The translations under genes and the position numbers were made by a program. DNA of 64,000 nt from an uncultured Flavobacteriales bacterium (GTDB lineage: Bacteria; Bacteroidota; Bacteroidia; CAIKAF01), in the NCBI GenBank assembly GCA_903825395.1, contig CAIKAF010000030.1, positions 7,553 through 71,552 on the forward strand, given 5' to 3'. The notes beneath the pieces were generated by a model. It had not been told where the DNA came from. It worked only from the letters and a program-made list of their open reading frames with translations, and did no database searches. Shown here in pieces: positions 1 to 60,300 of the stretch. How positions within the stretch are numbered: the first letter of the stretch is position 1; each line of letters starts with the position of its first letter.

Positions 1-3000
1 CAACCCTGTAGCATTTTTCCATGCACCCAAGTTGGCATATCCCAAATTGCCCATGGCTCCAATGAAAGGACCCGGGGTGTACAGGTTGTTGTAGTTGGAC
101 AATCCAACAAACAAGGCATTGTTGCTGATGTAAGGGATACCCTGAACCCGACAAGCCAAATTGTTGTTGCGGGAGCGAACATTGCTACCTGCATTCACAA
201 ATAAGCCGCCACTGAACTGGTCGCCATCACGTACAATACAGGTGTTGTGGTCGATGTCGATATTCACCATGTCATCAACCACAATGGCATAAACGGCAGC
301 AACTACGCCGCTGTCTCCAATCATAATTGCATTGTTGTAGATGCGGCTTGGTATGTTGTTTGACCCTGCTCCTTGTGATAAATAAATACCATAGGTAGGC
401 CAGCTTCCTCCGGCTTCAATCACATTTGAGGCCAAGCGCATTCCCGGGCCAGAAAAGTTGGTACGAATACCCATGGAAGTACCTGAGAAGGTGGAATTTC
501 CAATAATGGTATTGCCCTCTACCAACAAACTATCCTGATAGTCAATTTCCATACCCATAAAGGCTTGGCGGGTAAGTACGTTACCGGTGATTTGGGTGCC
601 CAACTCTCCTGCGCCATTCCCGGTGCCTCCTTTGTAGAAGATACCATACGATCCACCTTCAATTCGGTTGTTTGAAATGGTGTTGTAGTTGTCTCCGCCG
701 CTACCAATATCAGAAACCACGGCAGCCACCAAATTGCTAGTGGATAGGCCAACCGTATCTCCAACAATATAACAACGAGTAAGTGTATTGTGGGTTGCCC
801 GATTTCTAAAATCAACCACCCGGCCTACAGAACCACCGCTTTCAGAAATTGTAAGAGCCTCTAGGGTAACATAATCAACCCCATTAAAGCGAACGGTGTA
901 GTTCAAATTGGTAAGCGTAGAAGTAAAATCAATTTGAACAGCAGACGAATCGTTGGCCTGAGAACGGTAGGTTACGGTATTCACAGACGATGCACCAGGA
1001 ATCTCTGTCATTTCAACTTGTTCATTGTACAATCCGCTCACCGCTTCTACCAATACAGCACTGCAAATACCTCTAGCCTCTAGAGTATCGGCAGCTTCAC
1101 TGAACGAAACGAAGTTGGTTCCACCGGAAGGCAAAGAGGGATCGATGGTAAAGTTGCCAATTAATCCTTCAAACACACTCACATCAACCGAGTCGTTCGT
1201 GGTATTTTGATCGGCCACGCCATTGGGCAAAGTAGTCCAAGCTTCAATTTGATAGGTCTGACCTGTATTGAAGTTGAAGTTGCCTAAGGTTACTTGAGTC
1301 GTACCTCCAATTTGCAGGTTCAATCCAGTAACTGAAACGGGGGTTTGAACTGCTCCGTTTACACTCCAGTTCACATCTACAGAAGTCAGGTTGTTTAACC
1401 CATTGTTGCGAACAAGTGCTTCTACCGACTGACTTCCTGCACAGAAGAATGAACTTGGATTAACCATAGTGGTCACTCCTGCATCATCATTGAATATGGT
1501 GAATTCAATTGCCCCTGGATCAGGGGTATTGGTCCGGGCAATTCCGTTATAATCGATAGGAACTGTTGCCAATACATCCGTCCCAATGTTTTCAAGAGAT
1601 AGGGCTGTTGGCTTAAAGTTGCCGTTGGCCGCATCCAAAAACAAAGGATCTGTGCTCACAGAATTCTGGTCGCGGCTAGAGGCGTTCACAAAATCCAGAA
1701 GGGTTGGTGTTGCGGTCCCAAAATAACCAAAGTAAGGCACCCCATCGGTAGCATTCACAAATATGTCGTTGTAATCAGATGAGTCCAATGCTGTGGAAGA
1801 ACTATTGTAGAAACCATACTTTGTTCCTGTACCCGTCCGGCTAACTTGAACAATGTTGTTCAGAAAATCCGAGCCGGTTCCTGTGCCTGTAGCAAAAACA
1901 CCATAGGTGGTTCCACTTGGACTGGCAGCGTCATCCAATACTGTAGTATTGTGCAAAATCCGATTGTACAAGGCGCTAGACACATAGATACCATACTGCA
2001 ATCCATGGTTGTTGAACGCATGAACCAAGTTGTTTGACACAACCGTTTCCCGCCCTACAGCACCATCACCCAACAAATAAATTCCATACGCAGAATTTGT
2101 AAGGCCTCCCAAATTACCAGAAGGCTGATACACCCGGTTGCCACTAAAGTTGGAACTTAGAATATTTCCGGTCGTGTACAGTCCATAGAACGTGGTAATG
2201 TTGCTGATGTTCTCGCGACCCAATTCATTTCCTACGAAGGTCAATGAATCGGCATTGCTGATGAAAGACATATATAGGTAGTGGTCAACAAAGCGGTTAT
2301 TGGCAATTCGGTTACCAATGTTACCCAAGCCGCCTGTCAATCCGTTCATACGTACTCCATAGTATGGACCTCCGTTGGGGCCACCTTTAAACACACTATT
2401 TTCCACGGCGCAATAGCGAGCAGAAATCCCGCTGGTGCTGGTGCTGGTAGGAGATCCACTAAACAATAAGCCCGTGGATGTAGTTGAACTAGTACCAACA
2501 ATGGCAGACAAATCTGCTGTTACATAGCGTACTGTATCAAATCGGTTATCGCCGGTAAACAGCACTCCAAAACCATAGGTCGGATCTGTACCAATTAAAG
2601 TAAGGCTATCTAAGGTAACATACCTGGCTCCTTCAAATTTCACCAAATGTGGAGCAAGTACGTTCGGAGCGAAAGTCAACACGCCACCTTGACCATGAAT
2701 GTACAAGTAGTTTGTAGCACTGATGCCGGGATAGTTGTTGAAATTCAATTGTTCTGTCAGCGTATCGTTTGGATTCACGAATACATCCACAGGGCCACAA
2801 AGACCACCTTGAAGCAACACCTGTTGCATATCGGCCCAGGTATTGAAGTTGGTGCCGGCGGTAGGCTGAGTTCCATCCAAGGTATAATTCCCCGCTAAAC
2901 CGCCATACAAGGCCGACGTAACCGTATCGTTAATGGTGAATGGATCAGGTACACCATTCGGGTTAAACGAGTATGCTTTAAATGTCAATAAACCAGTTCC

Positions 3001-7972: not shown

Positions 7973-8860
7973 ATGCGCGCTCTTGCTCTTTTAATATTGA
8001 TGGCTGCTTTTGGGTCGGCCAATGCCCAGGGATTGCTGGATGAGTTGGAAACAGAAGCTCCAAAATCAAAAGAATTCACCATCGCCACCTTCAAAGCTCC
8101 ACGCATAATACAAGGGCACTCGGTCGAAATGCCGGCCAAAGGAGAGCTTTTATTCATCATTCAGCACCGCTTTGGCCGCGTCAATACTGGTTTTTACGAG
8201 CTGTTTGGCTGGGATCAGGCCTCCATCCGAATTGGTTTAGAGTACACCCTTCCCTTCTCCGATCGATTTAACATTGGCTTCGGTCGCAGTTCGTACGGAA
8301 AAACCTGGGATTTTTTCAGCAAAACCAAATTGTTGAAGCAAGCCAAAGGCGGAAGTCCCATCAGCTTAAGTTGGGTGTCAACGCTCGCCATCAATGGGCT
8401 GGATTGGCCAAATCCAAATCAAGAAAATTACTTTACGTCCCGAATGGCGTATACGCACCAGCTGTTGCTGGCCCGCAAATTCAATTCCTGGTTTTCTTTT
8501 CAATTAGCCCCAACCTTGGTGCATAAAAATTTAGTGCCCTTAAGCCAAGACCAGAACAGCTTTTTTGCCTTGGGCATGGGCGGGCGCGTCAAAGTGTCCA
8601 ACCGGGTTTCCATCAACGCCGAATACAGTTGGCTGCTGCCCGGGCAGCAAATTCCGCGCATCAACGGCTTAGAGCCACAAAATGCAATATCGCTGGGGGT
8701 GGACATCGAAACCGGAGGCCATGTTTTCCAGTTGCACATCACCAATACCCAAGCCATGTTCGACGTCGGCAGCATCGCTGAAACCACCGGCCGGCCTGAA
8801 TTGGGCGACATCCACGTGGGCTTCAACATCACCCGCACCTTCTCGTTCAAGCGGCACTAA
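7973..8860 (+). CDS. Putative outer-membrane beta-barrel protein (DUF5777-like)
   Basis: Signal peptide MRALALLILMAAFGSANAQ. Alternating hydrophobic beta-strand pattern with aromatic C-terminal strand NITRTFSF. Family assignment is from memory only. Confidence 0.45.
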   Translation: MRALALLILMAAFGSANAQGLLDELETEAPKSKEFTIATFKAPRIIQGHSVEMPAKGELLFIIQHRFGRVNTGFYELFGWDQASIRIGLEYTLPFSDRFNIGFGRSSYGKTWDFFSKTKLLKQAKGGSPISLSWVSTLAINGLDWPNPNQENYFTSRMAYTHQLLLARKFNSWFSFQLAPTLVHKNLVPLSQDQNSFFALGMGGRVKVSNRVSINAEYSWLLPGQQIPRINGLEPQNAISLGVDIETGGHVFQLHITNTQAMFDVGSIAETTGRPELGDIHVGFNITRTFSFKRH

Positions 8861-8897: not shown

Positions 8898-9050
8898 TTG
8901 GGGCGGCTAATCCGGCTATCGCGGGCAGTACGCAGTCGCCGGCACCGGCTGCAGTGGGCTGCCACGAGCTCCCAAGGTCGCTGTGGCAGTCCACGCAGCC
9001 CGTGCCGCCGCCTTTGCGCGCTGCCCTGCTCTATCCGGGCCGCAATGCCC
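8898..9050 (+). repeat. Family-A GC-rich long-hairpin element, copy A1 (subfamily I)
   Basis: ggcaccggctgc (8941-8952) pairs with gcagcccgtgcc (8995-9006). agtgggctgccac (8953-8965) pairs with gtggcagtccac (8983-8994). Loop gagctcccaaggtcgct. Termini gggcggctaatccggctatcgc / ctatccgggccgc are shared with A6 and A7. Confidence 0.85.
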
Positions 9051-9114: not shown

Positions 9115-10350
9115 ATGAAAAAAGAACGGATTTTAGAGCATTTGGATGCGCCGGAAGAACTGGAACGTCTATATAGATTCGATCGCAAGGGATTTATCGA
9201 GGCCTTTCAAGATTGGGCCGAAACGGCTCCCGAACACCCGGCTTTTGCCTTTTGGAAAGCCCGCATCGATTACAAACCAACACCAAGCCCCGTTCAACGG
9301 GAAGATTGGTTTTGGGTGATTGGGGCAGCTCTATTGAGCGGTATTGTGGTTCGCATTCCAGATATGTTTGATGTCAGTCCTGAATTTTTCTACCCCCGCA
9401 ATATCAGCATTGCCATTATGCCCATGCTCATGGCTTATTTTCTTAGACCCTCATTTAGCAATAGCCGGTTTTGGATGATTCCCGCCCTGGGAGTAGCGCT
9501 GGCCACCCTCTACATCAATCTGCTGCCAGAATCTATGAATGAAGATGTGTTCTTCTTGGTTTGCCTTCACCTACCTTTATTTATGTGGAGCCTTACGGGC
9601 GTTTCCTTTCTTGGCAAGGACTGGAAAAATTCAAAAAACCGCTTGGAATTTTTGAGGTTCAACGGCGATCTGCTCATCATGTCAACCTTGGTTTTTCAGG
9701 CCGGCGGATTGCTTAGTCTGATTACCATCGGGCTTTTTGAACTTATTGAATTTAGCATTGCCGAATGGTACTCCCGAAATGTGATGGTGATGGGGGCCGC
9801 GGCCATTCCATTGCTTAGCACCCATTGGGTACGCAGCAATCCCAAAATTGTAAATCGGCTATCGCCACTGATTGCCCGCGTGTTTTCTCCCATTGTGCTG
9901 TTAACCTTGAGCATTTATTTGGTCGCCATGATTTGGTCGGCCTATACCCTGTTTGAAGACCGGGACGCCTTATTGCTGTTTAATATGGTTTTGATTGCCG
10001 TTTTGGCTCTGATTTTATTTTCAATGGTAGAGGTGTCGCAAGGGCAATCGGCCAGCCTGCAATTGAAAATTTTAATTGCGCTTTCATTGGTCACCATTGC
10101 CATAAATTGCCTGGCGCTATCGGCCATTGTGTACCGTATTGTAGAATGGGGTTTCACTCCCAACCGACTGGCTGTTTTAGGGGGAAATGTATTGTTTTTG
10201 ATTCACTTGATTTTGGTAGCCGGGGCTTTAATTAGGGGCCTTCGCAGCAAGGAGCAGAACAACGGCATTGAGAGCGCCTTAGTTTGGTTTTTACCTGTAT
10301 ATGCGGCTTGGACCTTGGTGGTGGTAGTTCTATTCCCCATCCTTTTCTAA
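9115..10350 (+). CDS. Polytopic inner-membrane protein of unknown function
   Basis: About 10 hydrophobic helices after a soluble N-terminus (MKKERILEHLDAPEELERLYRF). The track start at 8983 runs through repeat A1 and is rejected; ATG 9115 (or 9073) is preferred. Confidence 0.6.
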   Translation: MKKERILEHLDAPEELERLYRFDRKGFIEAFQDWAETAPEHPAFAFWKARIDYKPTPSPVQREDWFWVIGAALLSGIVVRIPDMFDVSPEFFYPRNISIAIMPMLMAYFLRPSFSNSRFWMIPALGVALATLYINLLPESMNEDVFFLVCLHLPLFMWSLTGVSFLGKDWKNSKNRLEFLRFNGDLLIMSTLVFQAGGLLSLITIGLFELIEFSIAEWYSRNVMVMGAAAIPLLSTHWVRSNPKIVNRLSPLIARVFSPIVLLTLSIYLVAMIWSAYTLFEDRDALLLFNMVLIAVLALILFSMVEVSQGQSASLQLKILIALSLVTIAINCLALSAIVYRIVEWGFTPNRLAVLGGNVLFLIHLILVAGALIRGLRSKEQNNGIESALVWFLPVYAAWTLVVVVLFPILF

Positions 10351-10385
10351 TGAATGTATGGCAGCAAATTGGATTTTGCGATTAA

Positions 10386-10548
10386 CCCGCCGCTGCGGCA
10401 GGGATTGAAACGGGTAGCCGGCCATGCTGCCGGAGCCTGGCCCGCGTGGCGCGGAGGCGACCTTGGGAGCCACCGCAAGCCCGCTGGGCCAGCCTTCCGG
10501 CAGCGGCCGCCTACCGGAGAAAGCCCGTAGCCGCCCCAAAAATCCCCC
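10386..10548 (-). repeat. Family-A GC-rich long-hairpin element, copy A2 (subfamily II)
   Basis: ctgcggcagggattga...ggaggcgaccttgggagccaccgca...gtagccgccccaaaaatccccc. Abuts the stop codon of the 10548-11978 gene. Confidence 0.85.
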
Positions 10549-11978
10549 TATTTCAAATACCAAATTTTGCTGTACAACGGCCCCGATTTCGCTGCATATC
10601 CCTGGGCTTGAAGCTGCCGCTCCAGCTCTGATTCGTGCGAGACCTCCTGGCCTGTAATGACGACCTTGTACCGTTTCTGCTCCACCATCTGCACCATTTC
10701 ATTCAGCGTCCAAATGCCCAGCTCAGCGCGCCGTTGCTGCGGAATTCGGTCGGCAATGCGAACCAAAAAAGGCCCGCAGCTAAGTTCCGGCGGACCGGCA
10801 AAGCCCAATTCATGAGCCATTAGCGGACTGAGCGTTAGCGCAGAATCGGCCAGCATTGGGGCCTGATGAGCAGACCAAACCGGTTTTGAATTTTTCCATA
10901 TCCACCAGGAAGGTTTAGGCTGGGCAACAATCAAGACAAAAATGAGCAGCGCCACGGCCCGCTGGGCCTTGCCGGATGGGAAAAAACGCTTAAAATCAGC
11001 CACAATTAAAATGAACAACGGAGCTGTAATTAGGGGGAAATATTGCATAAACAGGGGCTGCATGGACAACAAAAGCACAACCGGGAGAAAAAAGAAGCTG
11101 AGGTACAATAGCATTCCCGACCCATTTTTTCTCCGGGCATGCCACAGCAACATCCAGGTGGCCAAGGCTATAAAAATCAAGCCATCAATCCGTAAAGCCC
11201 AATCAAAAAAATAGGCTAAACGGTCTTGAAAAATCAGATTGGGAGCTCCGATTTCCCATTTCCAAGCCGTGGTAATTTGGTGGAATTCCACATTCCCAAA
11301 CCAAGCCTGTTGAGGAAACAACAGCAAGGACAACCACAATGGCAGAGCGCCCAACAGGCCGCCCAAGCCCAGTGGAAGCACCCGTTTCATGTTGGGACTG
11401 TGGGCAAAAATAAGCACCGCAATGGGTATGAAAACGGCATAATAGGTCTTGGTGGCTATGGCCAAGCCCAACCACAACCCCGACTGAAAGGCAAGGCCCG
11501 GACTACGGTCGCCGCGCAGGTACGATTCGGTACGAAACGCGGCAAGGAAGAAAAACAAGACCGGCAAGCCGTAGTTCGATGCCTCAGAAAACGAGCGGAG
11601 CTGAGGATAGGCCAACATAAACCCCAGCGCCAGCAACAGGCTCAAATACAGAGGCATTCCCCGCTTGCGGGCAGCCGCCACCAATACCAAGGTGCTTGCA
11701 GTCCAAATCAGCAGCGCCGCCACCTTTCCTATGGCCAGCAATGAAACCGTATTGCCCAGAAGAACGATGAAGGGTGCCAGAACCATTGGATAGATCGGTC
11801 CTTGAAGAAAAGCAAAATCGAGGTACATTACCTCGCCCTGCGCCAGGCGCCAAGCCGTCATCAGGTACATGCTTTCGTTGTGGTCGTAAAACCCAAAAAT
11901 ATGCCTGCCGGCAAACCAAAGACCGGGCAACATCAACAACCACCATGCTCCAGAAAAGCGCTTGGCCTTCAGCAACAC
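10548..11978 (-). CDS. Polytopic membrane protein, ArnT/PMT-like GT-C glycosyltransferase candidate
   Basis: More than 10 TM helices and an acidic first loop (YDHNESMYL). GTG start 3 nt after the pepN stop; start uncertain. Confidence 0.45.
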   Translation of the reverse strand: MLLKAKRFSGAWWLLMLPGLWFAGRHIFGFYDHNESMYLMTAWRLAQGEVMYLDFAFLQGPIYPMVLAPFIVLLGNTVSLLAIGKVAALLIWTASTLVLVAAARKRGMPLYLSLLLALGFMLAYPQLRSFSEASNYGLPVLFFFLAAFRTESYLRGDRSPGLAFQSGLWLGLAIATKTYYAVFIPIAVLIFAHSPNMKRVLPLGLGGLLGALPLWLSLLLFPQQAWFGNVEFHQITTAWKWEIGAPNLIFQDRLAYFFDWALRIDGLIFIALATWMLLWHARRKNGSGMLLYLSFFFLPVVLLLSMQPLFMQYFPLITAPLFILIVADFKRFFPSGKAQRAVALLIFVLIVAQPKPSWWIWKNSKPVWSAHQAPMLADSALTLSPLMAHELGFAGPPELSCGPFLVRIADRIPQQRRAELGIWTLNEMVQMVEQKRYKVVITGQEVSHESELERQLQAQGYAAKSGPLYSKIWYLK

Positions 11979-17934: not shown

Positions 17935-19875
17935 TTACGAAATTGAAGGATTGGCCGAGGCTTCTTCCACCGCCTTTTCCCAGTTTTGCATGGCCACATC
18001 CAATTTCTTCCGTAGGCTTTCATATTCAGCGAAAAAAGAGGGCGACAGGGTTTTAAATTCTTCGCTGTCTTGCAGTTTGGCATCCATTACCGCCAATTGT
18101 TCTTCCAGCTTTTGAACCTCTGCCTCTGCCTTTTCTAGGTTCCGCTGAACTTGCTTGGCCTGTTGCTGCTGGTCTTTGCTCATCGCCTTGGGTTCTACCG
18201 CCTGCACCTGAGGCTTTACCGTACTTTCTTTTTTGGCTTTATCCCGCTCCAATTCGGCAAAGGACTCCAGTTGCTTGTTCCTCAAAAATTCATCAATCCC
18301 GCCCAAATGGGTTTTAATTCCCTTCGGCGTAAATTCCAGGGTTTTGTTGGTGAGTCCTTGCAAAAATTCGCGGTCATGGCTCACCACAACCAAGGTTCCG
18401 GGAAAGTGCAACAGGGCTTGCTTCAGCACTTCTTTCGATACGATGTCCAAGTGGTTGGTCGGTTCATCCAGAATCAAAAAATTCAGGGGAGTCAACAGCA
18501 GCTTGGCCATGGACAGCCGAGCCTTTTCTCCGCCCGACAATACTTTTATTTTTTTCTCCACCTCTTCCCCGCTGAACAAGAATGCCCCTAGGATTCCGCG
18601 GATTCGGGTAAAGGCATCGGTTTGTGCGGCGGCATATTCCATTTCTTTCAGCAAGGTATGGTCGCCCTGAAGTCGGTCTGTTTGGTGCTGAGCAAAATAG
18701 CCCAGAGCCACATTGTGCCCCGTTTCCAATTCTCCGCTGTAATCCAAATCGCCGGCAATAATGCGCGACAAGGTGGTTTTGCCCATGCCGTTTTTACCCA
18801 CGAAGGCCACCCGGTCGCCCGATTCAATTTCAAAGGAAAAGGGCGCAATCACGCGCTTGTCGCCGTAAAACTTCGATAAATTTTCAGCTTTGGCCACCAC
18901 CTTTCCGCTGCGGGGCGGCTCAGGGAAGCGAATTTTCATGGCGAAAATCTCATCCTCGTCCACTTCAATCCGTTCGGTTCTATCCAATTTTTTTTGCAGG
19001 GACTGCGCAAAACTGGCTTTGCTGGCCTTGGCTTTGAACCGTTCAATGTTCCGTTCCAATCGAGCAATTTCCCGGTCTTGGTTCTTTTTGGCGTTCATCA
19101 GTTGCTCCCGCCGTTCCTGCCGCAATTCCAAGTATTTGGAATAGGGCGCCTTGTAATCTTCCAGGCGACCGGCCGTAATTTCCAGGGTGCGGTTGGTCAA
19201 GGCATCCAGAAAACGACGGTCGTGGCTAATCATCATAATGGAACCGGGATATCCCTTCAAAAACTCTTCCAGCCAAATAATCGATTCAATGTCTAGGTGG
19301 TTGGTAGGTTCATCGAGCAGCAGCAAGTCAGGCTTGGTTAGCAACAGTTTTGCGAGTTCTACGCGCATTTGCCATCCGCCCGAAAAGTCGGCCATGCGCC
19401 GTTCCATATCTTCGTCCGAAAATCCGAGGCCCTTCAGAACTTTTTCCAGTTTTTCGTCGGTCCGACTTCCTTCCAGCACATCAAAACGCTCTTGGGTGCT
19501 GGTCAAGTCTTCAATCAATTGGGAATAGGCGTCCGATTCGTAATCGGTTCGGGTTTGCAGTTCATGGGTAATCCGGTCCAGTTCAGCAGCAAGGCGTTGC
19601 ACTTCGGCAAAGGCCGTGGCGGTTTCTTCGCGAATGGATTTGGTCGATTTATGGGCAAATTCCTGAGGCAAATAGCCAATTTTGAATTCGCGCGGGCGCG
19701 CTACATCGCCTTCCGAAGGGTTAATCCATCCGGCCAGAATTTTCATCAGGGTCGATTTCCCGGCCCCATTTCGTCCCGCCAGTCCAATCCGGTCGCCCGA
19801 ATTCACCTGAAAATTCAATCCTTCGAACAATACGGTTCCACCGAAATAGACCGCCAGATTTTGAACGCTAACCAT
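17935..19875 (-). CDS. ABC-F family ATPase (two ABC domains, charged linker and C-terminal coiled coil)
   Basis: Two Walker A motifs (GRNGAGKST, GKNGMGKTT), two LSGG signatures (FSGGWQMR, LSGGEKAR), no TM domain. Confidence 0.9.
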   Translation of the reverse strand: MVSVQNLAVYFGGTVLFEGLNFQVNSGDRIGLAGRNGAGKSTLMKILAGWINPSEGDVARPREFKIGYLPQEFAHKSTKSIREETATAFAEVQRLAAELDRITHELQTRTDYESDAYSQLIEDLTSTQERFDVLEGSRTDEKLEKVLKGLGFSDEDMERRMADFSGGWQMRVELAKLLLTKPDLLLLDEPTNHLDIESIIWLEEFLKGYPGSIMMISHDRRFLDALTNRTLEITAGRLEDYKAPYSKYLELRQERREQLMNAKKNQDREIARLERNIERFKAKASKASFAQSLQKKLDRTERIEVDEDEIFAMKIRFPEPPRSGKVVAKAENLSKFYGDKRVIAPFSFEIESGDRVAFVGKNGMGKTTLSRIIAGDLDYSGELETGHNVALGYFAQHQTDRLQGDHTLLKEMEYAAAQTDAFTRIRGILGAFLFSGEEVEKKIKVLSGGEKARLSMAKLLLTPLNFLILDEPTNHLDIVSKEVLKQALLHFPGTLVVVSHDREFLQGLTNKTLEFTPKGIKTHLGGIDEFLRNKQLESFAELERDKAKKESTVKPQVQAVEPKAMSKDQQQQAKQVQRNLEKAEAEVQKLEEQLAVMDAKLQDSEEFKTLSPSFFAEYESLRKKLDVAMQNWEKAVEEASANPSIS

Positions 19876-19879
19876 GCGG

Positions 19880-19887
19880 CAAAGGTA
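19880..19887 (-). promoter_or_regulatory. -7 box TACCTTTG, 4 nt upstream of ABC-F ATG
   Basis: Minus strand reads TACCTTTG-ccgc-ATG. Confidence 0.45.
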
Positions 19888-19888
19888 G

Positions 19889-20085
19889 AAAAAGGGCGGC
19901 TGAACGCGGACAGTTTTCCCATAGAATTAACGATGTTGGGCGGCAGCCGGGCTTTCCGGGCAAGTCCGCGGCTACCGGGCGGGCTGCCAGCGGGCTGTGG
20001 TGGCTCCTCACGTCGCCTCCTCGCCGCGCGGCAGCGGCCGCCGGTAGCCTTGCGGGCATGCCTCGTCAATCCCTGCCGCGGGCCA
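19889..20085 (+). repeat. Family-A element, copy A3 (subfamily II) with an extra partial terminus
   Basis: aaaaagggcggctgaac..ttgggcggcagccgggctttccggg..ggctaccgg...tggctcctcacgtcgcctcc...ccggtagccttgcggg..cctcgtcaatccctgccgc. Confidence 0.85.
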
Positions 20086-20490
20086 ACCAAGGCTATTAAC
20101 TTTCAAAACAAATAAAAGTGCTCGCCACCGTGTTCTTTGGCAAATGGTCACCAAATCAAGACAACCCTACAATGAGCCCCCGTTTGCGCTGGCTTTCCTG
20201 AATTGCCCTCAACCCCTGCGCTTTGCCTAAAGGGGTCGGCCAATCCGCTAGGCTGTTGGAATTTGAATACACCAAATAGAATATCTGTTTTTTCAGCCGT
20301 CCTGAATTTGGTTTGTTTTTCTTAAAAATTCCAGCCTTCCTTTTACCACAAATAAAACCAATTTACACTGTTAGATATTTAGAAAACAGTTAAATGCCTA
20401 TTGGGGATAACACTGTAAAATTGAATGTTAAAATCGAAATCTTGTTGGTAAATCGGAAGCGATTTTTTTTAGTTTTGAAAAAAAACAAGC

Positions 20491-25789: not shown

Positions 25790-26142
25790 TGTTTACGCTA
25801 CAATAATGTCAGCCCTGCGGGGTTTGGATGTCTTGAGCTCCAATACCTACTACAATAATTTCACCCCTACGGGGTTGGGTTGTTGTGCATTCCAATGCCT
25901 TCTACAATAATGTCACCACTACGGAGTTTGGATGTCCTGAACGCCAATTATTTCATGGGGGGGGGCTTATAGCTAGATATCGCCCTCTGTGCACTTTACG
26001 CCGACTTAGAGGTCTTTGCGGTAAAAACATCAAGACCTGACTGCCATTTTTTAACACAAGGCCCGCTAAGGGAGACGCAATGTTCGCAAAGGATTATCAC
26101 GCAGCTAACTTGTCCATTTTAGTACAACAAACGCCGCTTTAA
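25790..26142 (+). repeat. Family-B composite repeat: 3 x 52-bp units (25798-25953), Y/X' blocks and Z block
   Basis: ctacaataat(g/t)tca.cc..cgg.gtt units start at 25798, 25850 and 25902. These are followed by gggggcttatagctagatatcgccctctgtgcacttt..ctttgcggtaaaaac, ctgccattttttaacacaagg...gcaatgttcgcaaagg and aacttgtccattttagtacaacaaacgccgc. Confidence 0.85.
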
Positions 26143-28044: not shown

Positions 28045-28121
28045 TGGCTCCCCCTCTTGGACTTGAACCAAGGACCCTCTGATTAACAGTCAGATGCTCT
28101 AACCAACTGAGCTAAGGAGGA
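28045..28121 (-). tRNA. tRNA-Asn (anticodon GTT), CCA encoded
   Basis: Reverse complement is tcctccttagctcagttggttagagcatctgactGTTaatcagagggtccttggttcaagtccaagagggggagcca. 7-bp acceptor stem (one G-U), anticodon loop ctGTTaa, TPsiC loop ggttcaagtcc. Confidence 0.9.
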
Positions 28122-30567: not shown

Positions 30568-30957
30568 ATGCGGTTTAAAGTACATATGCCAAAACATCTA
30601 AGTCCCGTTTTTAGTGCCGAGTTAACCCAGGCTCAATTGCGTTTTAAGGAAGGTCAAATCCAACAAAGCTGGACACATTTGGAACGGGCACACATAGTAG
30701 GTCAACCCTATCCATATGCGCACTCGCTGGTGCATTGGAAGATGTTGATTTTTGGCTTTCGCACCAAAAATTCAAAGGAAATAATGGGCCAAGTACCAAG
30801 GCTGTTGGTGGGCGGAGTCAAATCGTTTGTAGGGGAAATTCCCGAAGGAAATACGGGTGGGGCCAACGTACCACCCTTAAAACGAATGCCAATCCCCGAA
30901 GACCTTTACCAGATTATCCACGCCAAGGAAGAGCGCAGAACCGCCCGCAGAACCTGA
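30568..30957 (+). CDS. DUF3703 domain protein
   Basis: SWTHLERAHIVGQPYPYAHSLVHWKML.FG....KEIMGQVPRLLVGGVKSFVG.IP.GNTGGANVPP matches my memory of the DUF3703 pattern. Confidence 0.65.
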   Translation: MRFKVHMPKHLSPVFSAELTQAQLRFKEGQIQQSWTHLERAHIVGQPYPYAHSLVHWKMLIFGFRTKNSKEIMGQVPRLLVGGVKSFVGEIPEGNTGGANVPPLKRMPIPEDLYQIIHAKEERRTARRT

Positions 30958-31022
30958 AGGGCTTTGGGCCTGCGCCAGGCTCAAACGCTCAGGAAAACAC
31001 CGCGCCTCAACGCATTGAGTTG

Positions 31023-31173
31023 GCCTGCGGCAGGGATTGACGAGGCTTGCCCGCAAGGCCAACGGCGGCAGCTGGCGCGTGGCGAGGAGGCGACTTTAGG
31101 AGCCACCGCAGCCCGCTGACAGCCCGCCGGTGGGCGCGGACAAGCCCGGAAAGCCCGGCTGCCGCCCAAAAAC
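31023..31173 (-). repeat. Family-A element, copy A4 (subfamily II)
   Basis: gcctgcggcagggattgacgaggcttgcccgcaagg...ggaggcgactttaggagccaccgcagcccgctg...aagcccggaaagcccggctgccgcccaaaaac. Confidence 0.85.
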
Positions 31174-35726: not shown

Positions 35727-35885
35727 TGGGGGCTGGGGGCGGCGGGCGGGCTTTCCGGGCTACTCCGCGGCTACCGGACGGGCTGGCAGCGGGCTGCGGT
35801 GGCTCCTGACGTCGCCTCCTCGCCCCGCGCCAGCTGCCGCCGGCATCCTTGCGGGGTAGCCTCGTCAATCCCTGCCGCAGGCGGC
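35727..35885 (+). repeat. Family-A element, copy A5 (subfamily II)
   Basis: gggggctgggggcggcgggcgggctttccggg..ggctaccgg...tggctcctgacgtcgcctcc...cctcgtcaatccctgccgcagg. Confidence 0.85.
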
Positions 35886-36120: not shown

Positions 36121-37044
36121 ATGGATTCCACAGGCCGTTCCAGATTCATGCACATTGCCCATAGCAAATTGCTGTCCGATTCGGCTCGAATCTGGGGCGA
36201 AAAAGCAATTCTAAGTATCGCCATTGTCTCGTTTATTATTCATTTGGCCCTTATTTATTTGCTTCAATGGGGCTGGATTTCATTGCCGGGGGGGACCGAG
36301 TTGTTAAGCAACCCCATCGCGGCCATTTATACCCCCTTTTCGTTTATTCTGCTGTACGAAGTCTATTTGTTGATTTATTACCTTCCGAAGTCCATCACCA
36401 CCTACATTAGCAAGCAGTATGAAATCATTACCCTGATTGTAATACGACGTCTATTCAAAGATTTGTCGAATTTATCGCTCACCTCAGACTGGTTTCAAAG
36501 CAATTACGACCTTCAGTTTACCTACGATTTAATCACATCCATTGTGCTGTTCTTTTTCATCTATTTGTTCAATGTGCAAAGTCGAAAACGGCATGCGCGC
36601 ATCCCTGAAGATGGAATTCAGGCACAATCCATTCAACGGTTCATTCAATTAAAAAAGACCATTGCAACAGCCTTGGTACCCTTGTTTTTGCTCCTTGCTG
36701 TATTTTCCTTCGGACATTGGGCTTTGGGTTTGATTCAAACTTCAGACGGGATAGCGCTATCGTTTAAAAACATCAATAATATTTTCTTCGAGCAGTTTTT
36801 CACTGTTTTGATTTTTGCAGATGTGATTTTATTGTTGTTCTCTTTCTATCATACCGACGATTTTCATAAGGTTATACGAAATTCAGGGTTTGTAATTTCT
36901 ACCATCTTGCTCCGCATTTCTTTTTCAGTTACAGGCCTGCTCAATACCGCTCTTATCGTGGCCGCCATTGTTTTCGGATTGCTTATTTTGTTGATTCACA
37001 ATCGGTTTGAAAAGCACTTGTCGGAGCAGCCACAATCGGTTTAG
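36121..37044 (+). CDS. Polytopic membrane protein of unknown function (AT-rich gene)
   Basis: About 6 hydrophobic helices. ATG 36121 (MDSTGRSRF) is preferred over the 36082 track start. Confidence 0.55.
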   Translation: MDSTGRSRFMHIAHSKLLSDSARIWGEKAILSIAIVSFIIHLALIYLLQWGWISLPGGTELLSNPIAAIYTPFSFILLYEVYLLIYYLPKSITTYISKQYEIITLIVIRRLFKDLSNLSLTSDWFQSNYDLQFTYDLITSIVLFFFIYLFNVQSRKRHARIPEDGIQAQSIQRFIQLKKTIATALVPLFLLLAVFSFGHWALGLIQTSDGIALSFKNINNIFFEQFFTVLIFADVILLLFSFYHTDDFHKVIRNSGFVISTILLRISFSVTGLLNTALIVAAIVFGLLILLIHNRFEKHLSEQPQSV

Positions 37045-37077
37045 TGTTTGGCGCGTTCCGATTCCCGGCCATAAACA

Positions 37078-37162
37078 GCCTGAAATTTAAGAACGATTTA
37101 GTGGTTACGGGGGTACAGTACGGTCTGACGATTGGCGGGCAGGCGATTGGCCCGCTTTTCAC
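37078..37162 (+). repeat. Flanking direct repeat, copy 1 (gcctgaaatttaa...cggtctgacg...ttttcac)
   Basis: Shares the 13-mer gcctgaaatttaa, the 10-mer cggtctgacg and the ttttcac end with 37968-38057 at similar spacing. Confidence 0.55.
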
Positions 37163-37247
37163 AAGATCGTTTAACCGAAAGTAAAACGTAATCTTTAAAA
37201 ACTATTTGTTGTTTCGACGAAAGATTTGGGCTGGCACTTGGTTGCTG

Positions 37248-37595
37248 TTAGAGGCCTTTTTCTTTCTTAATAATATCTTCAATTTGAGTTTTAAGTGTAG
37301 GAATAATATTCTCCACAACTCCCCATACAGCCCAAAGGTCAACGCCTATATAGTCGTGGATTAATTTATCTCTCATTCCTGCGATCTTCTTCCATTAAAT
37401 TCCTGAATACGTTGCACGGAAATCATCGTTTAACTTTTTAGCGGCTTCACCAATGATTTCAAAGTTTCTGATTACTGCGTCTTGAATCAGGTTGTTCTTT
37501 AAAAAACCATCTTCATCAATTCCTTCAGTGTATTCTTTTATTCTGGAAATGCATGAACCGATGTGCTCAATATTAATAATTGGATCTTTTTTCAA
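37248..37595 (-). pseudogene. hepT: HepT (DUF86) toxin interrupted by an in-frame TAA at 37397..37395
   Basis: The 66-aa ORF ends ...DDFRATYSGI*. The same frame continues WKKIAGMRDKLIHDYIGVDLWAVWGVVENIIPTLKTQIEDIIKKEKGL* to 37248. The catalytic Rx4HxY motif (RDKLIHDY) lies after the stop. Confidence 0.75.
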
Positions 37596-37873
37596 ACCAA
37601 CCTGATTAAATCCGATTCAATGAATGGCTTTAGGGATGCATTTACCGAGCGCAAAGTGACTAGGTCTACCTTGATTCCAAGCAGAACAGAAAGTTCTTGC
37701 TCCAAACCAATTAACTCAAGAAGATCAACCTCCATATCAAAATCGATAAGGATATCAAGATCACTCTTTTCATGCTCTTCTCCACGAGCATATGAGCCAA
37801 ATACCCCAATATAAGTAGGCTTAACCCTTTGGATAACAGTTTTAATTATATTTTCCTGTTGTGGAGTTATCAT
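37592..37873 (-). CDS. mntA: MntA-type nucleotidyltransferase antitoxin
   Basis: GSYARGEEHEKSDLDILIDF (GSx10DxD) motif. 4-nt overlap with the hepT start. Confidence 0.85.
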   Translation of the reverse strand: MITPQQENIIKTVIQRVKPTYIGVFGSYARGEEHEKSDLDILIDFDMEVDLLELIGLEQELSVLLGIKVDLVTLRSVNASLKPFIESDLIRLV

Positions 37874-37967
37874 AATTTAAAAATACACTTTTTTTGGTTG
37901 TTCTGTGACCTCTAGCGTTTTGCAAATAGGTGCAGGCATGATTTCAGGCACGAACCATGCTCAAATT

Positions 37968-38057
37968 GCCTGAAATTTAATTGCAATTGAAATGTTTAAA
38001 TGGGGAGTTATTAGTCGGTCTGACGGTTTCCGGCTTGGCGAAGGTGCCGATTTTCAC
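37968..38057 (+). repeat. Flanking direct repeat, copy 2
   Basis: gcctgaaatttaa (37968), cggtctgacg (38016-38025), ttttcac (38051-38057). Its first 9 nt also pair with atttcaggca at 37941-37950. Confidence 0.55.
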
Positions 38058-38600
38058 CATCCCGAAGCTTCGGGATTGATGAGGATAACCAAACTTTGAC
38101 TTACCACAAATGTGTTTACGGAGCACTGATCAGTACATTTTTGTTTGGTTATCGTCATTGAGCCTTGAGCGTAACTCATTTATACCCCCTATTAAACCTA
38201 CCAATCTGCCGATTTAGTTGTAAAGGCGAAGGCTTGATGCGTTGTATTTAATGTACTGATTTTTAACAAATCGTCAAAAGAAGGCCTTCAAGAACTAAAT
38301 ACATAAAGAGAGAGCCTAGGTTTAACGTTGCTCACATTTGCACAAACATAGAATCACTACTGCCAATGACCCCTTAGGGCTTTTGGGCTTACCATGCCGA
38401 ACATAGTATAAGATAGACCACCAAAAACGCAGCCAACACATGCATTTTCTTTAGATTGCCATAAGAATCCCTAAAGGACCTGTCAACTCCTTTTAAATCT
38501 TCTAATTCCGATGGGATAAATGCTTTGATGCATTCCAATTCTTTTTTACCTGAACGTTTAACCTATTAGCCCCCCTTCCTTCGATTTGCTCATTTTGGCC

Positions 38601-38608
38601 TATCTTTG
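38601..38608 (+). promoter_or_regulatory. -7 box TATCTTTG upstream of the FTR1 operon
   Basis: TAnnTTTG match 22 nt before ATG 38631. Confidence 0.4.
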
Positions 38609-38630
38609 ATTCGGTTTTCGGACGTACAGC

Positions 38631-39134
38631 ATGAATAAAAACAACCTTGCCCTGATTCTAGCCTGCCTAGCCCTGGGCCTTTCTATGTTTGCTTTTTTTA
38701 GAAACTCAGCTCCCGTTTCGGGCAGCGTTACCGTGGCCGATTCAACGGAAATGGAATCCGAAGAATTGGAGGTGGCCGTTTTAATGCAACGCTTCCAGTG
38801 GAACGTGAACAAACTTTATTTTGCGGGTTTGGCCAACAACAAACCCTTGGCCAATTTTTACCTGCACGAATTGGAAGAAAGCATGGAAGAGCTGGCCGAG
38901 CATCCCATCGAAGAAAACGGACAGCGCCTCGATGAATTGGTGCGTGCCTGGGGCTTGGCGCCCCTGGAAAGCTTGGAGGATTCCTTAGAAAAAACCGATC
39001 CAAAAGGCTTCAAATTGGCCTATGAAGCCTTCATTAAAAATTGCAATGGCTGCCACATTTCCAGTGGACATCCCTACATCCGAATTGTACTCCCCACTCA
39101 ACCCGTAATGGACAATCAAGATTTTAACCCATGA
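38631..39134 (+). CDS. Periplasmic helical protein with C-terminal CxxCH (class II cytochrome c-like)
   Basis: Signal peptide. Helix-rich E/L/A sequence. Single CNGCH about 25 residues from the C-terminus, the layout of cytochrome c'/c556-type four-helix bundles. Confidence 0.45.
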   Translation: MNKNNLALILACLALGLSMFAFFRNSAPVSGSVTVADSTEMESEELEVAVLMQRFQWNVNKLYFAGLANNKPLANFYLHELEESMEELAEHPIEENGQRLDELVRAWGLAPLESLEDSLEKTDPKGFKLAYEAFIKNCNGCHISSGHPYIRIVLPTQPVMDNQDFNP

Positions 39135-45892: not shown

Positions 45893-46522
45893 ATGTCATT
45901 AGTAGCGAAAAAAGCCCCTGAATTTACAGCGGCAGCGGTAATCAATGGAGAGGAAATCGTAGAGAAATTCTCCTTAAAGCAATATTTGGGTAAAAAGCAT
46001 GTTGTATTTTTCTTTTATCCAAAAGATTTCACCTTTGTTTGCCCTACGGAATTGCATGCTTTTCAAGAGAAACTAGCTGAATTTGAAAAGAGAAATGTAG
46101 CTGTTGTGGCCTGTTCAACTGACACCGAACAATCCCACTGGGGTTGGTTGCAAATGAGCAAAGAACAAGGTGGTATTCAGGGAATTACCTATCCGATTGT
46201 AGCAGATACAGATAAAACCATCGCCGCCAATTTTGGCACCTTATTTGGAGATTACGATTGGGATGAATACGGTCATTTGGTAGCAACGGGTCCGATGATT
46301 GCCTTCCGTGGATTGTTTTTAATTGACAAAGAAGGTGTAGTTCAACATGAGCTGATTAACCACTTGCCTTTGGGCCGGAATGTGGACGAGGCCTTGCGCA
46401 TGGTAGATGCCCTTCAGTTTTTTGAAGAGCGAGGCGAAGTATGTCCTGCGAACTGGCAAGCTGGTTCTGAGGGCATGAAGGCTACCCACGATGGCGTGGC
46501 CGATTACCTTTCAAAACATTAA
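45893..46522 (+). CDS. ahpC: Typical 2-Cys peroxiredoxin (AhpC/Tsa family)
   Basis: FFFYPKDFTFVCPTE peroxidatic Cys and EVCPANW resolving Cys. Confidence 0.88.
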   Translation: MSLVAKKAPEFTAAAVINGEEIVEKFSLKQYLGKKHVVFFFYPKDFTFVCPTELHAFQEKLAEFEKRNVAVVACSTDTEQSHWGWLQMSKEQGGIQGITYPIVADTDKTIAANFGTLFGDYDWDEYGHLVATGPMIAFRGLFLIDKEGVVQHELINHLPLGRNVDEALRMVDALQFFEERGEVCPANWQAGSEGMKATHDGVADYLSKH

Positions 46523-46525
46523 TGC

Positions 46526-46775
46526 CGTAAAAACGGCCGATTGGCCGTTTCGACATGCGGCATATCGCACCGTAACGCACCGTAAAAACGGCCGATAAGC
46601 CGTTTCGACATACGGCATATCGCACCGTAACGCACCGTAAAAACGGCCGATTGGCCGTTTCCATTATGCCATAACGCACCGTAGCGTAAAAACGGCCGAT
46701 TGGCCGTTTCCATTATGCCATAACGCACCGAATAGTAAAAACAACCGATAGGGCCTTTCGACATGCGGCCCGGAT
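46526..46775 (+). repeat. Tandem array of 5 hairpin units (periods 55, 55, 49, 49 bp)
   Basis: cgtaaaaacggccgattggccgtttc starts at 46526, 46581, 46636, 46685 and (degenerate) 46734. Each has an 8-bp perfect stem aaacggcc/ggccgttt with loop gatt. Inter-hairpin segments are themselves repeated. Confidence 0.85.
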
Positions 46776-46917
46776 AGAGCTAGGTAGCGCGCAAAGCACG
46801 GAAAGCAGCCTGCGTGGGCTGGGCGGGCGACCTTGGAAGCCCCGCCCGGCCCACTGCAGGCGCTTTTCCGTGCTGCGTACTACCTGCGATAGCCGGAAAA
46901 GCCGCCCCAAAAATACC
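46768..46917 (-). repeat. Family-A element, copy A6 (subfamily I)
   Basis: ggcccggatagagctaggtagcgcgcaaag...cgaccttggaag...ctgcgtactacctgcgatagccggaaaagccgccccaaaaataccc. Stems detailed in findings. Confidence 0.85.
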
Positions 46918-47044
46918 CTGCCCATTTCACCCGCGTAAAACGAGAACGGAAGAAGAAAGCAAACCCGTTGATTCATTGCTGCAGTGGCGGTGGCGGATGC
47001 GTAAAAAAACTTCATAAAATGCGGGTTTAGTGGGCACTAATTAC

Positions 47045-51719: not shown

Positions 51720-52290
51720 GACTCCTTTGCGAACATTGAGGCTCCCTTGCGGCCCTTGTGTTAAAAAATGGCAGTTGGGTATTGATGCTTTTTTTTACCG
51801 CAAAGGGCTCAAAGTCGGCGCAAAGTTCACGGAGGGCGATATCTAAGTGTAAGCCCCCGATAGTAATAATAGAGCTCAAGACATTAAAACCGCGTAGGGC
51901 TGATATTATTGTGGAACGTAATGCAGCTCACAACACCAGAACCCCGTAGGGCTGACATTATTGTAGAAAGTATTCAGGCTCACAACACCAGAACCCCGTA
52001 GGGGTGATATTATTGTAGAAAGAATTCAGGCTCACAACACCAGAACCCCGTAGGGGTGACATTATTGTAGGTGACATTTTTGCGAAAATTGAGGCTCCCA
52101 TTGCGGGCGTTGTGTTAACAAATGGCGGTTGGGCCTTGATGCCTTTTTTACCACAAAGGGCTCCAAGTCGGCGCAAAGGGCACAGAGTTTATGTCGTGTG
52201 GCGAGAGTGTGCAGGAGTTTGGAGGCTCCTTTGCGAACATTGCGGCTCCCTTTAAGGACTTTGTGTTAAAAAAACAGCTCTATTCCTTCT
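51720..52290 (-). repeat. Family-B composite repeat, right copy (IR-R 51720-52128 with 4 x 52-bp units, plus a further partial copy to ~52290)
   Basis: ctcctttgcgaacattgaggctcccttgcggcccttgtgttaaaaaatggcagttgggtattgatgc...caaagttcacggagggcgatatctaagtgtaagccccc nearly matches the reverse complement of 49690-49832. Unit landmarks accccgtagg at 51889, 51941, 51993 and 52045. Confidence 0.85.
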
Positions 52291-60135: not shown

Positions 60136-60300
60136 AGGGGGAGATTTTGGGCGGCCATTCCGGCTATCACAGGTAGTACGCAGCCAAGTGAAGCGCCTGC
60201 TGTGGCCGCAAAGTGGCTCCTAAAGTCGCCCTTTCCGGTCACGCAGCCTGCTTCACTTGGCTTTGCGCGCTACCTTGTTCTATCCGGGCCGCCACCCCCC
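60136..60300 (+). repeat. Family-A element, copy A7 (subfamily I)
   Basis: gggggagattttgggcggccattccggctatcacaggtagtacgcag...tggctcctaaagtcgcc...ctttgcgcgctaccttgttctatccgggccgcc. Perfect 12-bp stem 60183-60194/60250-60261. Confidence 0.85.

Follow-up and report, generated by a model that had tools for sequence, protein, structure and literature searches.

The 64,000-nt stretch of DNA analyzed here (the window), from contig CAIKAF010000030.1 of an uncultured Flavobacteriales bacterium, contains seven GC-rich intergenic hairpin elements, which we label c1 to c7. We think that these elements form a long-stemmed, GC-rich subfamily of the Rfam family Flavo-1 (RF01705) that works like the extragenic palindromic DNA repeats known as repetitive extragenic palindromic (REP) sequences and bacterial interspersed mosaic elements (BIMEs), and that they are not free-standing small RNA (sRNA) genes. 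We put the probability of this explanation at about 50%. The evidence favors a REP-like palindromic repeat that acts at the DNA level and is kept for its fold. An sRNA is less likely, and readings as a MITE (miniature inverted-repeat transposable element) or as a terminator fit poorly. What makes the elements look like DNA repeats is their random orientation, the lack of a promoter box at the head, a layout that is the reverse of a terminator, nearly pure Watson–Crick pairing, and the assembly breaks that they cause. We infer the following mechanism. Selection would act on the element's own strand when it is folded, be it as RNA, irrespective of the direction of read-through, or as DNA that is extruded or single-stranded. 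A trans-acting protein would read two modules of G·A pairs. Pairing would be maintained while copies are replaced or homogenized between sites, by gene conversion or by a trans-acting enzyme. A role for the host, be it transcript-end protection, insulation, or DNA topology, would be secondary.

The first-pass annotation had described seven GC-rich segments that lie between genes in both orientations, and this description holds up well. A covariance model built from these segments (R1), run on the window with filters off, returns exactly seven matches with scores of 124–141 bits (E-values from 1e-23 to 5e-27). No further match in the window exceeds 23 bits, and the weaker ones are the reverse strands of c1 to c7. 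A pattern of 22 specified bases also matches seven times, against 0.00 matches expected from 100 shuffles. The segments have a GC content of 61.8–77.4%, compared with 47.0% for the window. Each copy is about 150 nt long, and together they cover about 1.6% of the window (1,043 of 64,000 nt), at about one copy per 9 kb. Subfamily A, with a GGCCCGGATAGA/GATAGCCGG base, comprises c1 (8898..9047, minus strand; 123.8 bits and a pattern match), the type copy c6 (46761..46910, plus strand; 135.0 bits), and c7 (60147..60296, minus strand; 138.9 bits). Subfamily B, with a GGCAGGGATTGA/GAAAGCCCGG base, comprises c2 (10391..10539, plus strand; 124.7 bits), c3 (19936..20083, minus strand; 135.1 bits), c4 (31023..31169, plus strand; 140.6 bits), and c5 (35734..35882, minus strand; 135.0 bits). 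The ranges given earlier agree with these coordinates, the third being 47 nt longer on the tail side, and the order of orientations along the window is −,+,−,+,−,+,−. All copies are intergenic relative to genes supported by homology or Pfam. The open reading frames (ORFs) that overlap them are start-codon extensions or antisense (GTG start at 8983; 19369–20115; 30735–31040; 46713–47015).

If the seven segments are aligned with the GCCGCCC + A-run end, the tail, oriented 3′, three invariant blocks become apparent: CGGC-MS-GGATWGA at the 5′ side, the head, GCGAC-NTNN-G-N-AGC in the middle, and GAWAGCC-SG ... GCCGCCC at the 3′ side. The terminus and the core that had been proposed can be recognized in these blocks, the former as GCCGCCC(C) followed by the A-run and the latter as GCGAC-YTTR-GRAGC. 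Each copy folds into an imperfect hairpin of about 60 bp, as suggested. The minimum free energy of c6 is −92.4 kcal/mol, which is far better than that of dinucleotide shuffles (z = −8.8; z = −6.3 for the reverse complement), and its minimum-energy structure includes the pairing of 46795–46806 with 46862–46874 as well as that of the inner GC-rich arms.

The fold is supported by strong covariation. RNAalifold finds 45 pairs in the seven copies, 28 of them with compensatory double changes. In an alignment of 101 further copies from relatives (A3), standard pairs occupy 93.7% of all cells, compared with 69.7% in column shuffles and 31–49% if the partner is slid by 1–3 columns. Double-sided changes are found at 40 of the 45 pairs and in 955 cells; single-side changes number about 50. 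Watson–Crick pairs account for 92% of the pairs, and G·U and A·C for only 1.7% and 0.9% of the cells. Such a near-absence of wobble pairs and single-side changes is unlike typical RNA families. Almost purely Watson–Crick pairing is what we would expect if a mismatch were harmful on either strand, or if one arm were copied from the other.

From the outside inward, a copy begins with a weak T-rich 5′ flank that is able to pair with the 3′ A-run. The helix P1, GCGGC(AG)/(CT)GCCGC, closes the rod of about 60 bp and is followed by a GGG/CCC helix (CGG/CCG in subfamily A). Next is a conserved 5×5 internal loop, AUWGA/GAWAG, which consists of A·G, U-A, W-W, G·A, and A·G, and whose W position covaries with its partner (UA 91, AU 8). 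This loop is purine rich and strand specific (GGGAUWGA opposite GGAWAGCCC). Inside it lies a semiconserved module, CCGCAAGG/...GCGGA. The mid-stem is free in sequence and fixed in length: the distance from base module to base module is 123–124 nt in 86 of 98 copies, the 5′ arm from base to apex measures 48–50 nt in 90 of 98 copies, and the 3′ arm measures 46–48 nt in 95 of 98, where the search pattern permitted 40–60 and 38–58 nt. The apex, GCGAC-NNNN-GRAGC, is made of two G-C pairs, tandem G·A/A·G, a C-G pair, and a 4-nt loop. The apical module is invariant in the 101 copies, with the loops TTTA (40), CTTG (34), CTTA (9), and others, most of which have complementary first and last letters (as in UUUA and CUUG). 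In c6, the basal 5′ module GGATAGA (46772..46778, plus strand, invariant columns) forms the internal loop (A·G, U-A, A-U, G·A, A·G) together with GATAGCC at 46888–46894, the apical module GCGAC-CTTG-GAAGC occupies 46827..46840 (plus strand), and the tail, consisting of GATAGCC, the 3′ strand of P1 (GCCGCCCC), and the A-run, occupies 46888..46913 (plus strand). Across 100 tails, GAWAGCC is invariant and CCGCCC is conserved at 79–96%, followed by A at 56–67% over 5–6 nt. The A-run belongs to the element in every gene context. The conserved non-Watson–Crick positions are purine–purine on one strand only. Therefore, the form that is recognized would be a folded single strand rather than duplex DNA.

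The copies had been described as not belonging to a named family. This is where our results differ from the first-pass annotation, since intermediates and the Rfam seed alignment link them to Flavo-1. On the basis of sequence, we would assign the window copies to Flavo-1 as a long and GC-rich subfamily that has diverged, because AT-rich intermediates match both models and because the seed holds long members with the same apex. In AT-rich genomes, copies have a GC content of 34–40% and retain both modules and length. Two such long copies at loci from relatives or public contigs (L-numbers), L009:6549-6698 and L073:4868-5017, match R1 with E-values of about 1.5e-7. RF01705 aligns with the same copies along the whole model, on R1's strand and with a large insertion, at scores below its gathering threshold of 42 bits (33.5 bits for L009:6556-6702 and 35.4 bits for L073:4874-5018). 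Both loci also contain a canonical 77-nt Flavo-1 (L009:3285-3361, 61 bits; L073:2982-3058, 56 bits). The basal module, GGATWGA + GAWAGCC, is invariant in all 7 window copies and all 101 others, and the letters of the basal loop (GGGAUWG.AG/GGAWAGCCCG) recur in the canonical copies of L009 and L073 and in the seed alignment. The Flavo-1 seed of 2010 already contained members of 142–149 nt, namely NC_009613.1/1377002-1377143, 1308986-1309129, 2214869-2215012, and 2778208-2778065, and NZ_AAPR01000003.1/277159-277307 (PMC2864571, supplementary file 151). All five share the apex AGCGAC...GGAAGCU/GGAGCU. A base-only covariance model made from GC-rich copies (R2) is too narrow to recover the AT-rich members. 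Its sole match in 84 kb, a weak one (14.3 bits, E about 1), is exactly a seed member on plasmid p5482.

Two seed members are located on conjugative Bacteroides plasmids. On pBF9343 (L083, 733–806) the element lies between a recombinase gene and an ArdC-like single-stranded DNA-binding antirestriction gene, and on p5482 (L084, 3658–3734) it follows traO/DUF4425 genes. A pattern scan of one genome per species returned at least 79 stretches. Among the matches listed, almost all are Bacteroidota metagenome-assembled genomes (MAGs), mostly K_DeepCast_35m_m2_130, ErkenSummer_bin-6618, and casp15-mb.160, together with a few from Flavobacteriales S010_51, a Cryomorphaceae MAG, and Psychroflexus salis. 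Over 5 kb, casp15-mb.160 and the window are about 95% identical, and a metagenome scan for orthologous loci returned one locus. Pattern matches in one viral contig and in one MAG each of Microlunatus and Gemmatimonadota were not confirmed by the covariance model and are attributed to chance. The viral contig was the only pattern match in IMG/VR (2.9 million contigs), and we rejected a phage association.

One could also argue that the copies are structured noncoding RNAs, in line with the Rfam entry for Flavo-1 (Gene; sRNA). Transcription would run from head to tail, a protein would bind the RNA at both G·A modules, and the long stem would be a spacer or a processed duplex. We place this reading on the unlikely side. 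It agrees with the covariation, with the conserved asymmetric internal loop, and with an apex of tandem G·A and CUUG, GUGA, or GCGA loops. Copies that are more conserved than their flanks would also be expected, and in every context the head side has about 60–95 nt more free space than the tail side, which leaves room for a promoter. If there were such a promoter, one would look for the Bacteroidota −7 box TAnnTTTG at the head. The box is found upstream of just 7 of 97 heads, compared with 21 of 97 downstream of tails, where 43 real gene starts of the same genomes lie. In the head flank, TAnnTTTG and TTTG have no preferred position, neither composition nor folding stands out, and neither sequence nor structure is conserved beyond about −14; the only conserved word is the T-run, the pairing partner of the A-run. 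At the 3′ end there is an A-run instead of a terminator, wobble pairs are unusually few for an RNA family, and there are hundreds of divergent paralogues with concerted evolution. We found no function for Flavo-1 in the literature, and the original paper lists it only as a likely RNA (Weinberg et al. 2010, Genome Biol 11:R31; PMC2864571). A transcriptome study of Flavobacterium psychrophilum found Flavo-1 matches on either strand relative to transcribed regions, and many matches without transcription (PMC9723704).

Alternatively, the copies could be cis-acting hairpins in host transcripts that end or protect the mRNA of the gene reading in, possibly on the tail side only. Stop codons of genes that read into the tail are only 17–23 nt away (median), which leaves no room for a separate terminator, while genes reading into the head stop 78–117 nt away. 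Furthermore, 58% of the gene ends that flank copies are 3′ ends, and canonical terminators are rare around the copies (at most 12% beside either end). Despite this, we think that such a role is rather unlikely as the main explanation, for the following reasons. First, the 5′ flank is T rich and the 3′ flank A rich, such that transcripts of either strand have the order U-run, hairpin, A-run, the opposite of an intrinsic terminator. The U-tract that should directly follow the hairpin of an intrinsic terminator is absent in either reading direction. Second, orientation relative to genes is unbiased: 53 copies lie between co-directional genes (30 sense, with the head facing the upstream gene, and 23 antisense), 21 between convergent ends, and 12 between divergent starts. 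Third, the wobble bias described below is independent of the direction of host transcription. Fourth, genes that read into heads do not have extra canonical terminators (9%). We also rejected two related ideas. If the A-run of the tail were the T-tract of a neighboring terminator, a hairpin should accompany it, and this is the case in only 4–6 of 54 copies. In a polar-terminator model, terminators should be enriched before heads, and the predicted ones are not.

Between close strains, orthologous copies are more conserved than their surroundings. Compared with L082, c1 and c2 are 99.3% and 98.7% identical (region overall 96.1%), and compared with L060, the locus from casp15-mb.160, c7 is 100% identical (region overall 95.0%). 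For these three copies this amounts to 3 substitutions in 449 nt, where about 20 would be expected. The same pattern is found between L050 and L061 (copies 92.7% and 92.6%, region 85.3%, spacer 63%, flanking 100 nt 70–75%), between L045 and L057 (copy 94.0%, right flank 86%, adjacent DNA 73%), and between L043 and L014 (copy 98.7%, left flank 96.3%). At greater divergence, whole stems are exchanged. Three relatives (L085 and L086 among the occupied sites) keep the tail and the flank of the c3 site and have different stems. The copy c3 is 87–89% identical to its paralogues c4 and c5 and only 77% identical to its positional orthologue, which in turn is 87–90% identical to copies from different loci of other MAGs. 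Similarly, the orthologous pair in L062 and L059 has a rare P1 variant in common and an entirely different stem. Paralogues that are closer than positional orthologues, together with replaced stems, point to gene conversion between copies or to excision and reinsertion. Judged from the alignments, this turnover indicates one of these two processes on top of strong selection for pairing.

The c2 site is without an element in L086, a relative with 81% amino-acid identity. In L086, the region orthologous to window 10351–10547 (9300–9480) contains about two tandem units of about 65 nt (gagcYgcatcc...aaaaYgcc.gg.aagga) and no hairpin element; it seems to have been remodeled rather than being simply empty. 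Four contigs (L080, L081, L086, and L088) end at or inside copies, the first two just before c6; the other two start within the c3 orthologue, at its model position 61. Evidently, short-read assemblies break at these repeats. Next to c6, a tandem array of about four 55-nt units (46520–46730; 84–87% matches) fills the gap from the ahpC stop codon (46522) to the head of c6, and public contigs with the same ahpC end inside or just after this array.

Two regularities in the arrangement of the copies are new and statistically strong. The first is alternation. Over all loci, neighboring copies are oriented in opposite directions in 29 of 30 pairs (p = 6e-8); contiguous tiles add two opposite pairs and one same-orientation pair, and a relaxed search inside the two nonalternating pairs revealed no hidden copy. 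The distant relative L089 has the order +,−,+, and the short and long Flavo-1 copies of L009 and L073 are also oppositely oriented. Head-to-head pairs can be as close as 50–80 nt (five doublets), and tail-to-tail pairs always span at least one gene, with a minimum spacing of 1.5 kb. The doublets do not represent a repeated unit, as their spacers are unrelated, and neighboring partners are not specially alike (72–74% identity compared with 70.6% for random copies). Homologous recombination between copies, which inverts the DNA between inverted copies and deletes that between direct ones, would maintain alternation without giving rise to it. Seed coordinates from F. psychrophilum show runs of the same orientation and no alternation, in a list that is sparse and incomplete and therefore does not test it.

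The second regularity is that the two ends are spaced differently from genes. The median distance from the tail is 17–23 nt to a stop codon and 86–108 nt to a start codon, and from the head 78–117 nt and 157–174 nt, respectively. Of 86 copies, 63 have a smaller gap on the tail side than on the head side (p = 2e-5), an asymmetry that is explained neither by a head promoter nor by terminators in front of heads. One could speculate that the alternation is functional and that copies are polar boundary elements, which divide the chromosome into blocks of genes bounded in turn by tails and by heads and whose direction is read by a hairpin- or cruciform-binding protein. This would be compatible with the 29 of 30 opposite pairs, with tail-bounded blocks that are tightly abutted and hold at least one gene, with head-to-head spacers down to 50 nt, and with a constraint on copies that is greater than that on neighboring coding DNA. 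We regard the idea as highly doubtful. If it were true, it would constitute an undescribed architectural or insulating system of Flavobacteriales chromosomes.

Returning to the reading as a REP-like subfamily of Flavo-1, several of our results weigh against it. Concerning membership, RF01705 finds no match in the window, either at the gathering threshold or at E ≤ 1, and nothing even at E ≤ 10 in a 301-nt stretch with c4 alone. About 25 copies that lie in 144 kb of loci from related MAGs all go undetected as well. Hence, membership depends on the intermediates and the seed alignment. Rfam scans of the window return only a tRNA and miRNA-precursor-like noise on the hairpins, and a plain Rfam scan could not have revealed the link to Flavo-1. 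The connection to a known family is thus present only indirectly. Concerning mobility, Pfam annotation found no transposase, integrase, or Y1 (REP-associated tyrosine transposase, RAYT) domain among the 52 window genes, in agreement with the first-pass annotation (Pfam-A was scanned for 49 genes; folD, ffh, and L25 carry precomputed Pfam annotation). An all-versus-all BLASTP comparison of 805 ORFs around 108 copies, spanning 630 kb, returned only ordinary paralogues and no recurrent protein family. No target-site duplications were found, and flanking direct repeats are not in excess: the longest direct match is 5.42 nt, compared with 5.36 nt in controls, and flanking matches of at least 8 nt occur at 5.1% of copies and 3.7% of controls. 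We have not identified a trans-acting enzyme, and the evidence for mobility is limited to one occupied/empty site and the turnover of sequence. Concerning the molecule on which selection acts, the wobble bias follows the element's own strand (G·U 75, A·C 39). The ratio is about 2:1 whichever way genes read (16:8 for sense, 21:10 for antisense), which fits a transcript of the element as well as it fits single-stranded DNA. Strand-specific tandem G·A modules and CUUG/GNRA-type loops are likewise as typical of RNA as of DNA. Finally, a REP-like model does not explain alternation over kilobases, the tight tail spacing, and the strong conservation of copies.

The null results on mobility also bear on the possibility that the copies are classical MITEs, that is, internally deleted insertion sequences with the arms as terminal inverted repeats and a DDE transposase acting in trans. 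High copy number, intergenic location in both orientations, subfamilies with near-identical stems at different loci, and the occupied/empty site would all suit a MITE. However, the arms covary rather than keep a transposase-binding sequence, the conserved parts are loops and not termini, no parent element was found in the 630 kb around the 108 copies, and positional orthologues persist across species. The lack of target-site duplications argues against DDE-type transposition and also against target-primed reverse transcription as an explanation of the A-tail. The MITE reading is extremely improbable and already largely refuted.

The genes around the copies are ordinary. All 52 window genes are of common types, such as peptidases, ABC-F, AdoHcy hydrolase, prs, pth, photolyase, and cytochromes, and so are the genes bracketed by pairs of copies (e.g., dihydrolipoamide dehydrogenase, DUF1295, and a SprB-repeat protein). 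The tail of c1 lies 38 nt past the stop codon of a DUF5777 gene (7973–8860). The copy c2 lies between convergent gene ends, its tail 8–9 nt from the stop of 10548–11978 (minus strand), and c4 lies between the stop of a DUF3703 gene (30957) and the start of an ABM-domain gene (31228). The copy c5 sits in a region of divergent promoters, with 53 nt between its tail and the start of a PMT-family gene downstream (35681). The copy c6 is found between ahpC and prs, and c7 between the stop of an M16 peptidase gene (60330) and the start of a photolyase gene (60083/60092). The tail of c3 is 61 nt upstream of the ABC-F start codon (19875). Downstream of this tail (19889–19935) there is a second GCCGCCC on the element strand, followed by a T-run and by a TACCTTTG box that matches the Bacteroidota −7 motif. 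Because the box is just 5 nt from the start codon, the sequence suggests that the ABC-F mRNA is leaderless or has a very short leader.

The window has a few other features. On the minus strand at 1–5535, an ORF of at least 1,845 amino acids runs off the window and has no Pfam domain at E ≤ 1e-4. The 1.6 kb at 37044–38631 contain one small gene, for a 93-amino-acid MNT/Pol-beta-type nucleotidyltransferase (37592–37873, minus strand), and could be a toxin–antitoxin remnant. The tRNA gene (28048–28121, minus strand; 69 bits) is the sole Rfam family in the window at gathering score. Two intergenic tandem arrays with a 52-nt unit (25798–25948 and 51888–52070; 2.9 and 3.5 copies) form one family on opposite strands, whose unit holds a mini-palindrome, CCCCTACGGGG. 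This second family of repeats is not related to the hairpin element.

Rfam has listed Flavo-1 as a presumed small RNA since 2010, without a function or any follow-up. The branch that we describe is invisible to the Rfam model, occurs in a group of mostly freshwater Flavobacteriales, and behaves as a constrained DNA palindrome family rather than as an sRNA gene. Its copies break metagenome assemblies, create spurious GC-rich ORFs, and escape standard annotation. No current REP-like model predicts alternation, different spacing at the two ends, and conservation combined with wholesale stem replacement. Complete genomes, and culturable flavobacteria with the long form, offer a way to test all of these regularities.

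How do these elements compare to known systems? Integron attC sites resemble them in that structure is conserved over sequence, and in that a folded single strand with strand-specific unpaired bases is recognized. However, attC sites form same-orientation arrays next to intI, carry R″/R′ boxes, vary in length, and lack a conserved apex. None of this applies to our copies, which are scattered among housekeeping genes and alternate, with no integrase in the window.

Another analogy is with the single-strand origins and single-stranded DNA promoters of plasmids (ssoA with RSB and CS-6; Frpo). These are imperfect hairpins of 130–300 nt that are active only as folded single strands. Like our copies, they are orientation specific and have a conserved basal site and apical loop. 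A Flavo-1 seed member also adjoins the ArdC-like gene on the conjugative plasmid pBF9343. In contrast to these plasmid elements, our copies are chromosomal and dense, with GC-rich stems that lack promoter boxes; the likeness is one of description, and no similarity in sequence is known.

With Flavo-1, the window copies have in common the helix and internal loop at the base (GCG-N3-GGGAUWG.AG ... GGAWAGCCCG), a distal hairpin that varies, a high number of copies in each genome, and a restriction to Bacteroidota, as well as the long seed members of 142–149 nt with their GCGAC..GRAGC apex. They differ in being 62–77% GC, all of the long form, and of fixed length. They also have a GC-rich P1 and the GCCGCCC + A-run tail, and they occur about once per 9 kb in alternating orientation.

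REPs, BIMEs, and REPINs (REP doublets forming hairpins) of Proteobacteria differ in several respects. REPs are 20–40 nt long and have a conserved GTAG or CGTC tag with a conserved stem; the window units are about 150 nt long, their stems covary, and CTAC/GTAG occurs only as a variable stem segment. No RAYT gene was seen: the 52 window genes contain no Y1_Tnp domain, and no ORF recurs beside the 108 copies. Successive units of BIMEs have alternating orientations, like the window copies, with the difference that BIMEs alternate inside tight clusters and our copies across 0.05–13 kb with genes between them. The two also share several features: both are extragenic, palindromic, and present in high copy number and in both orientations, both prefer gene ends, both keep their hairpin through compensatory change, and both persist at orthologous sites.

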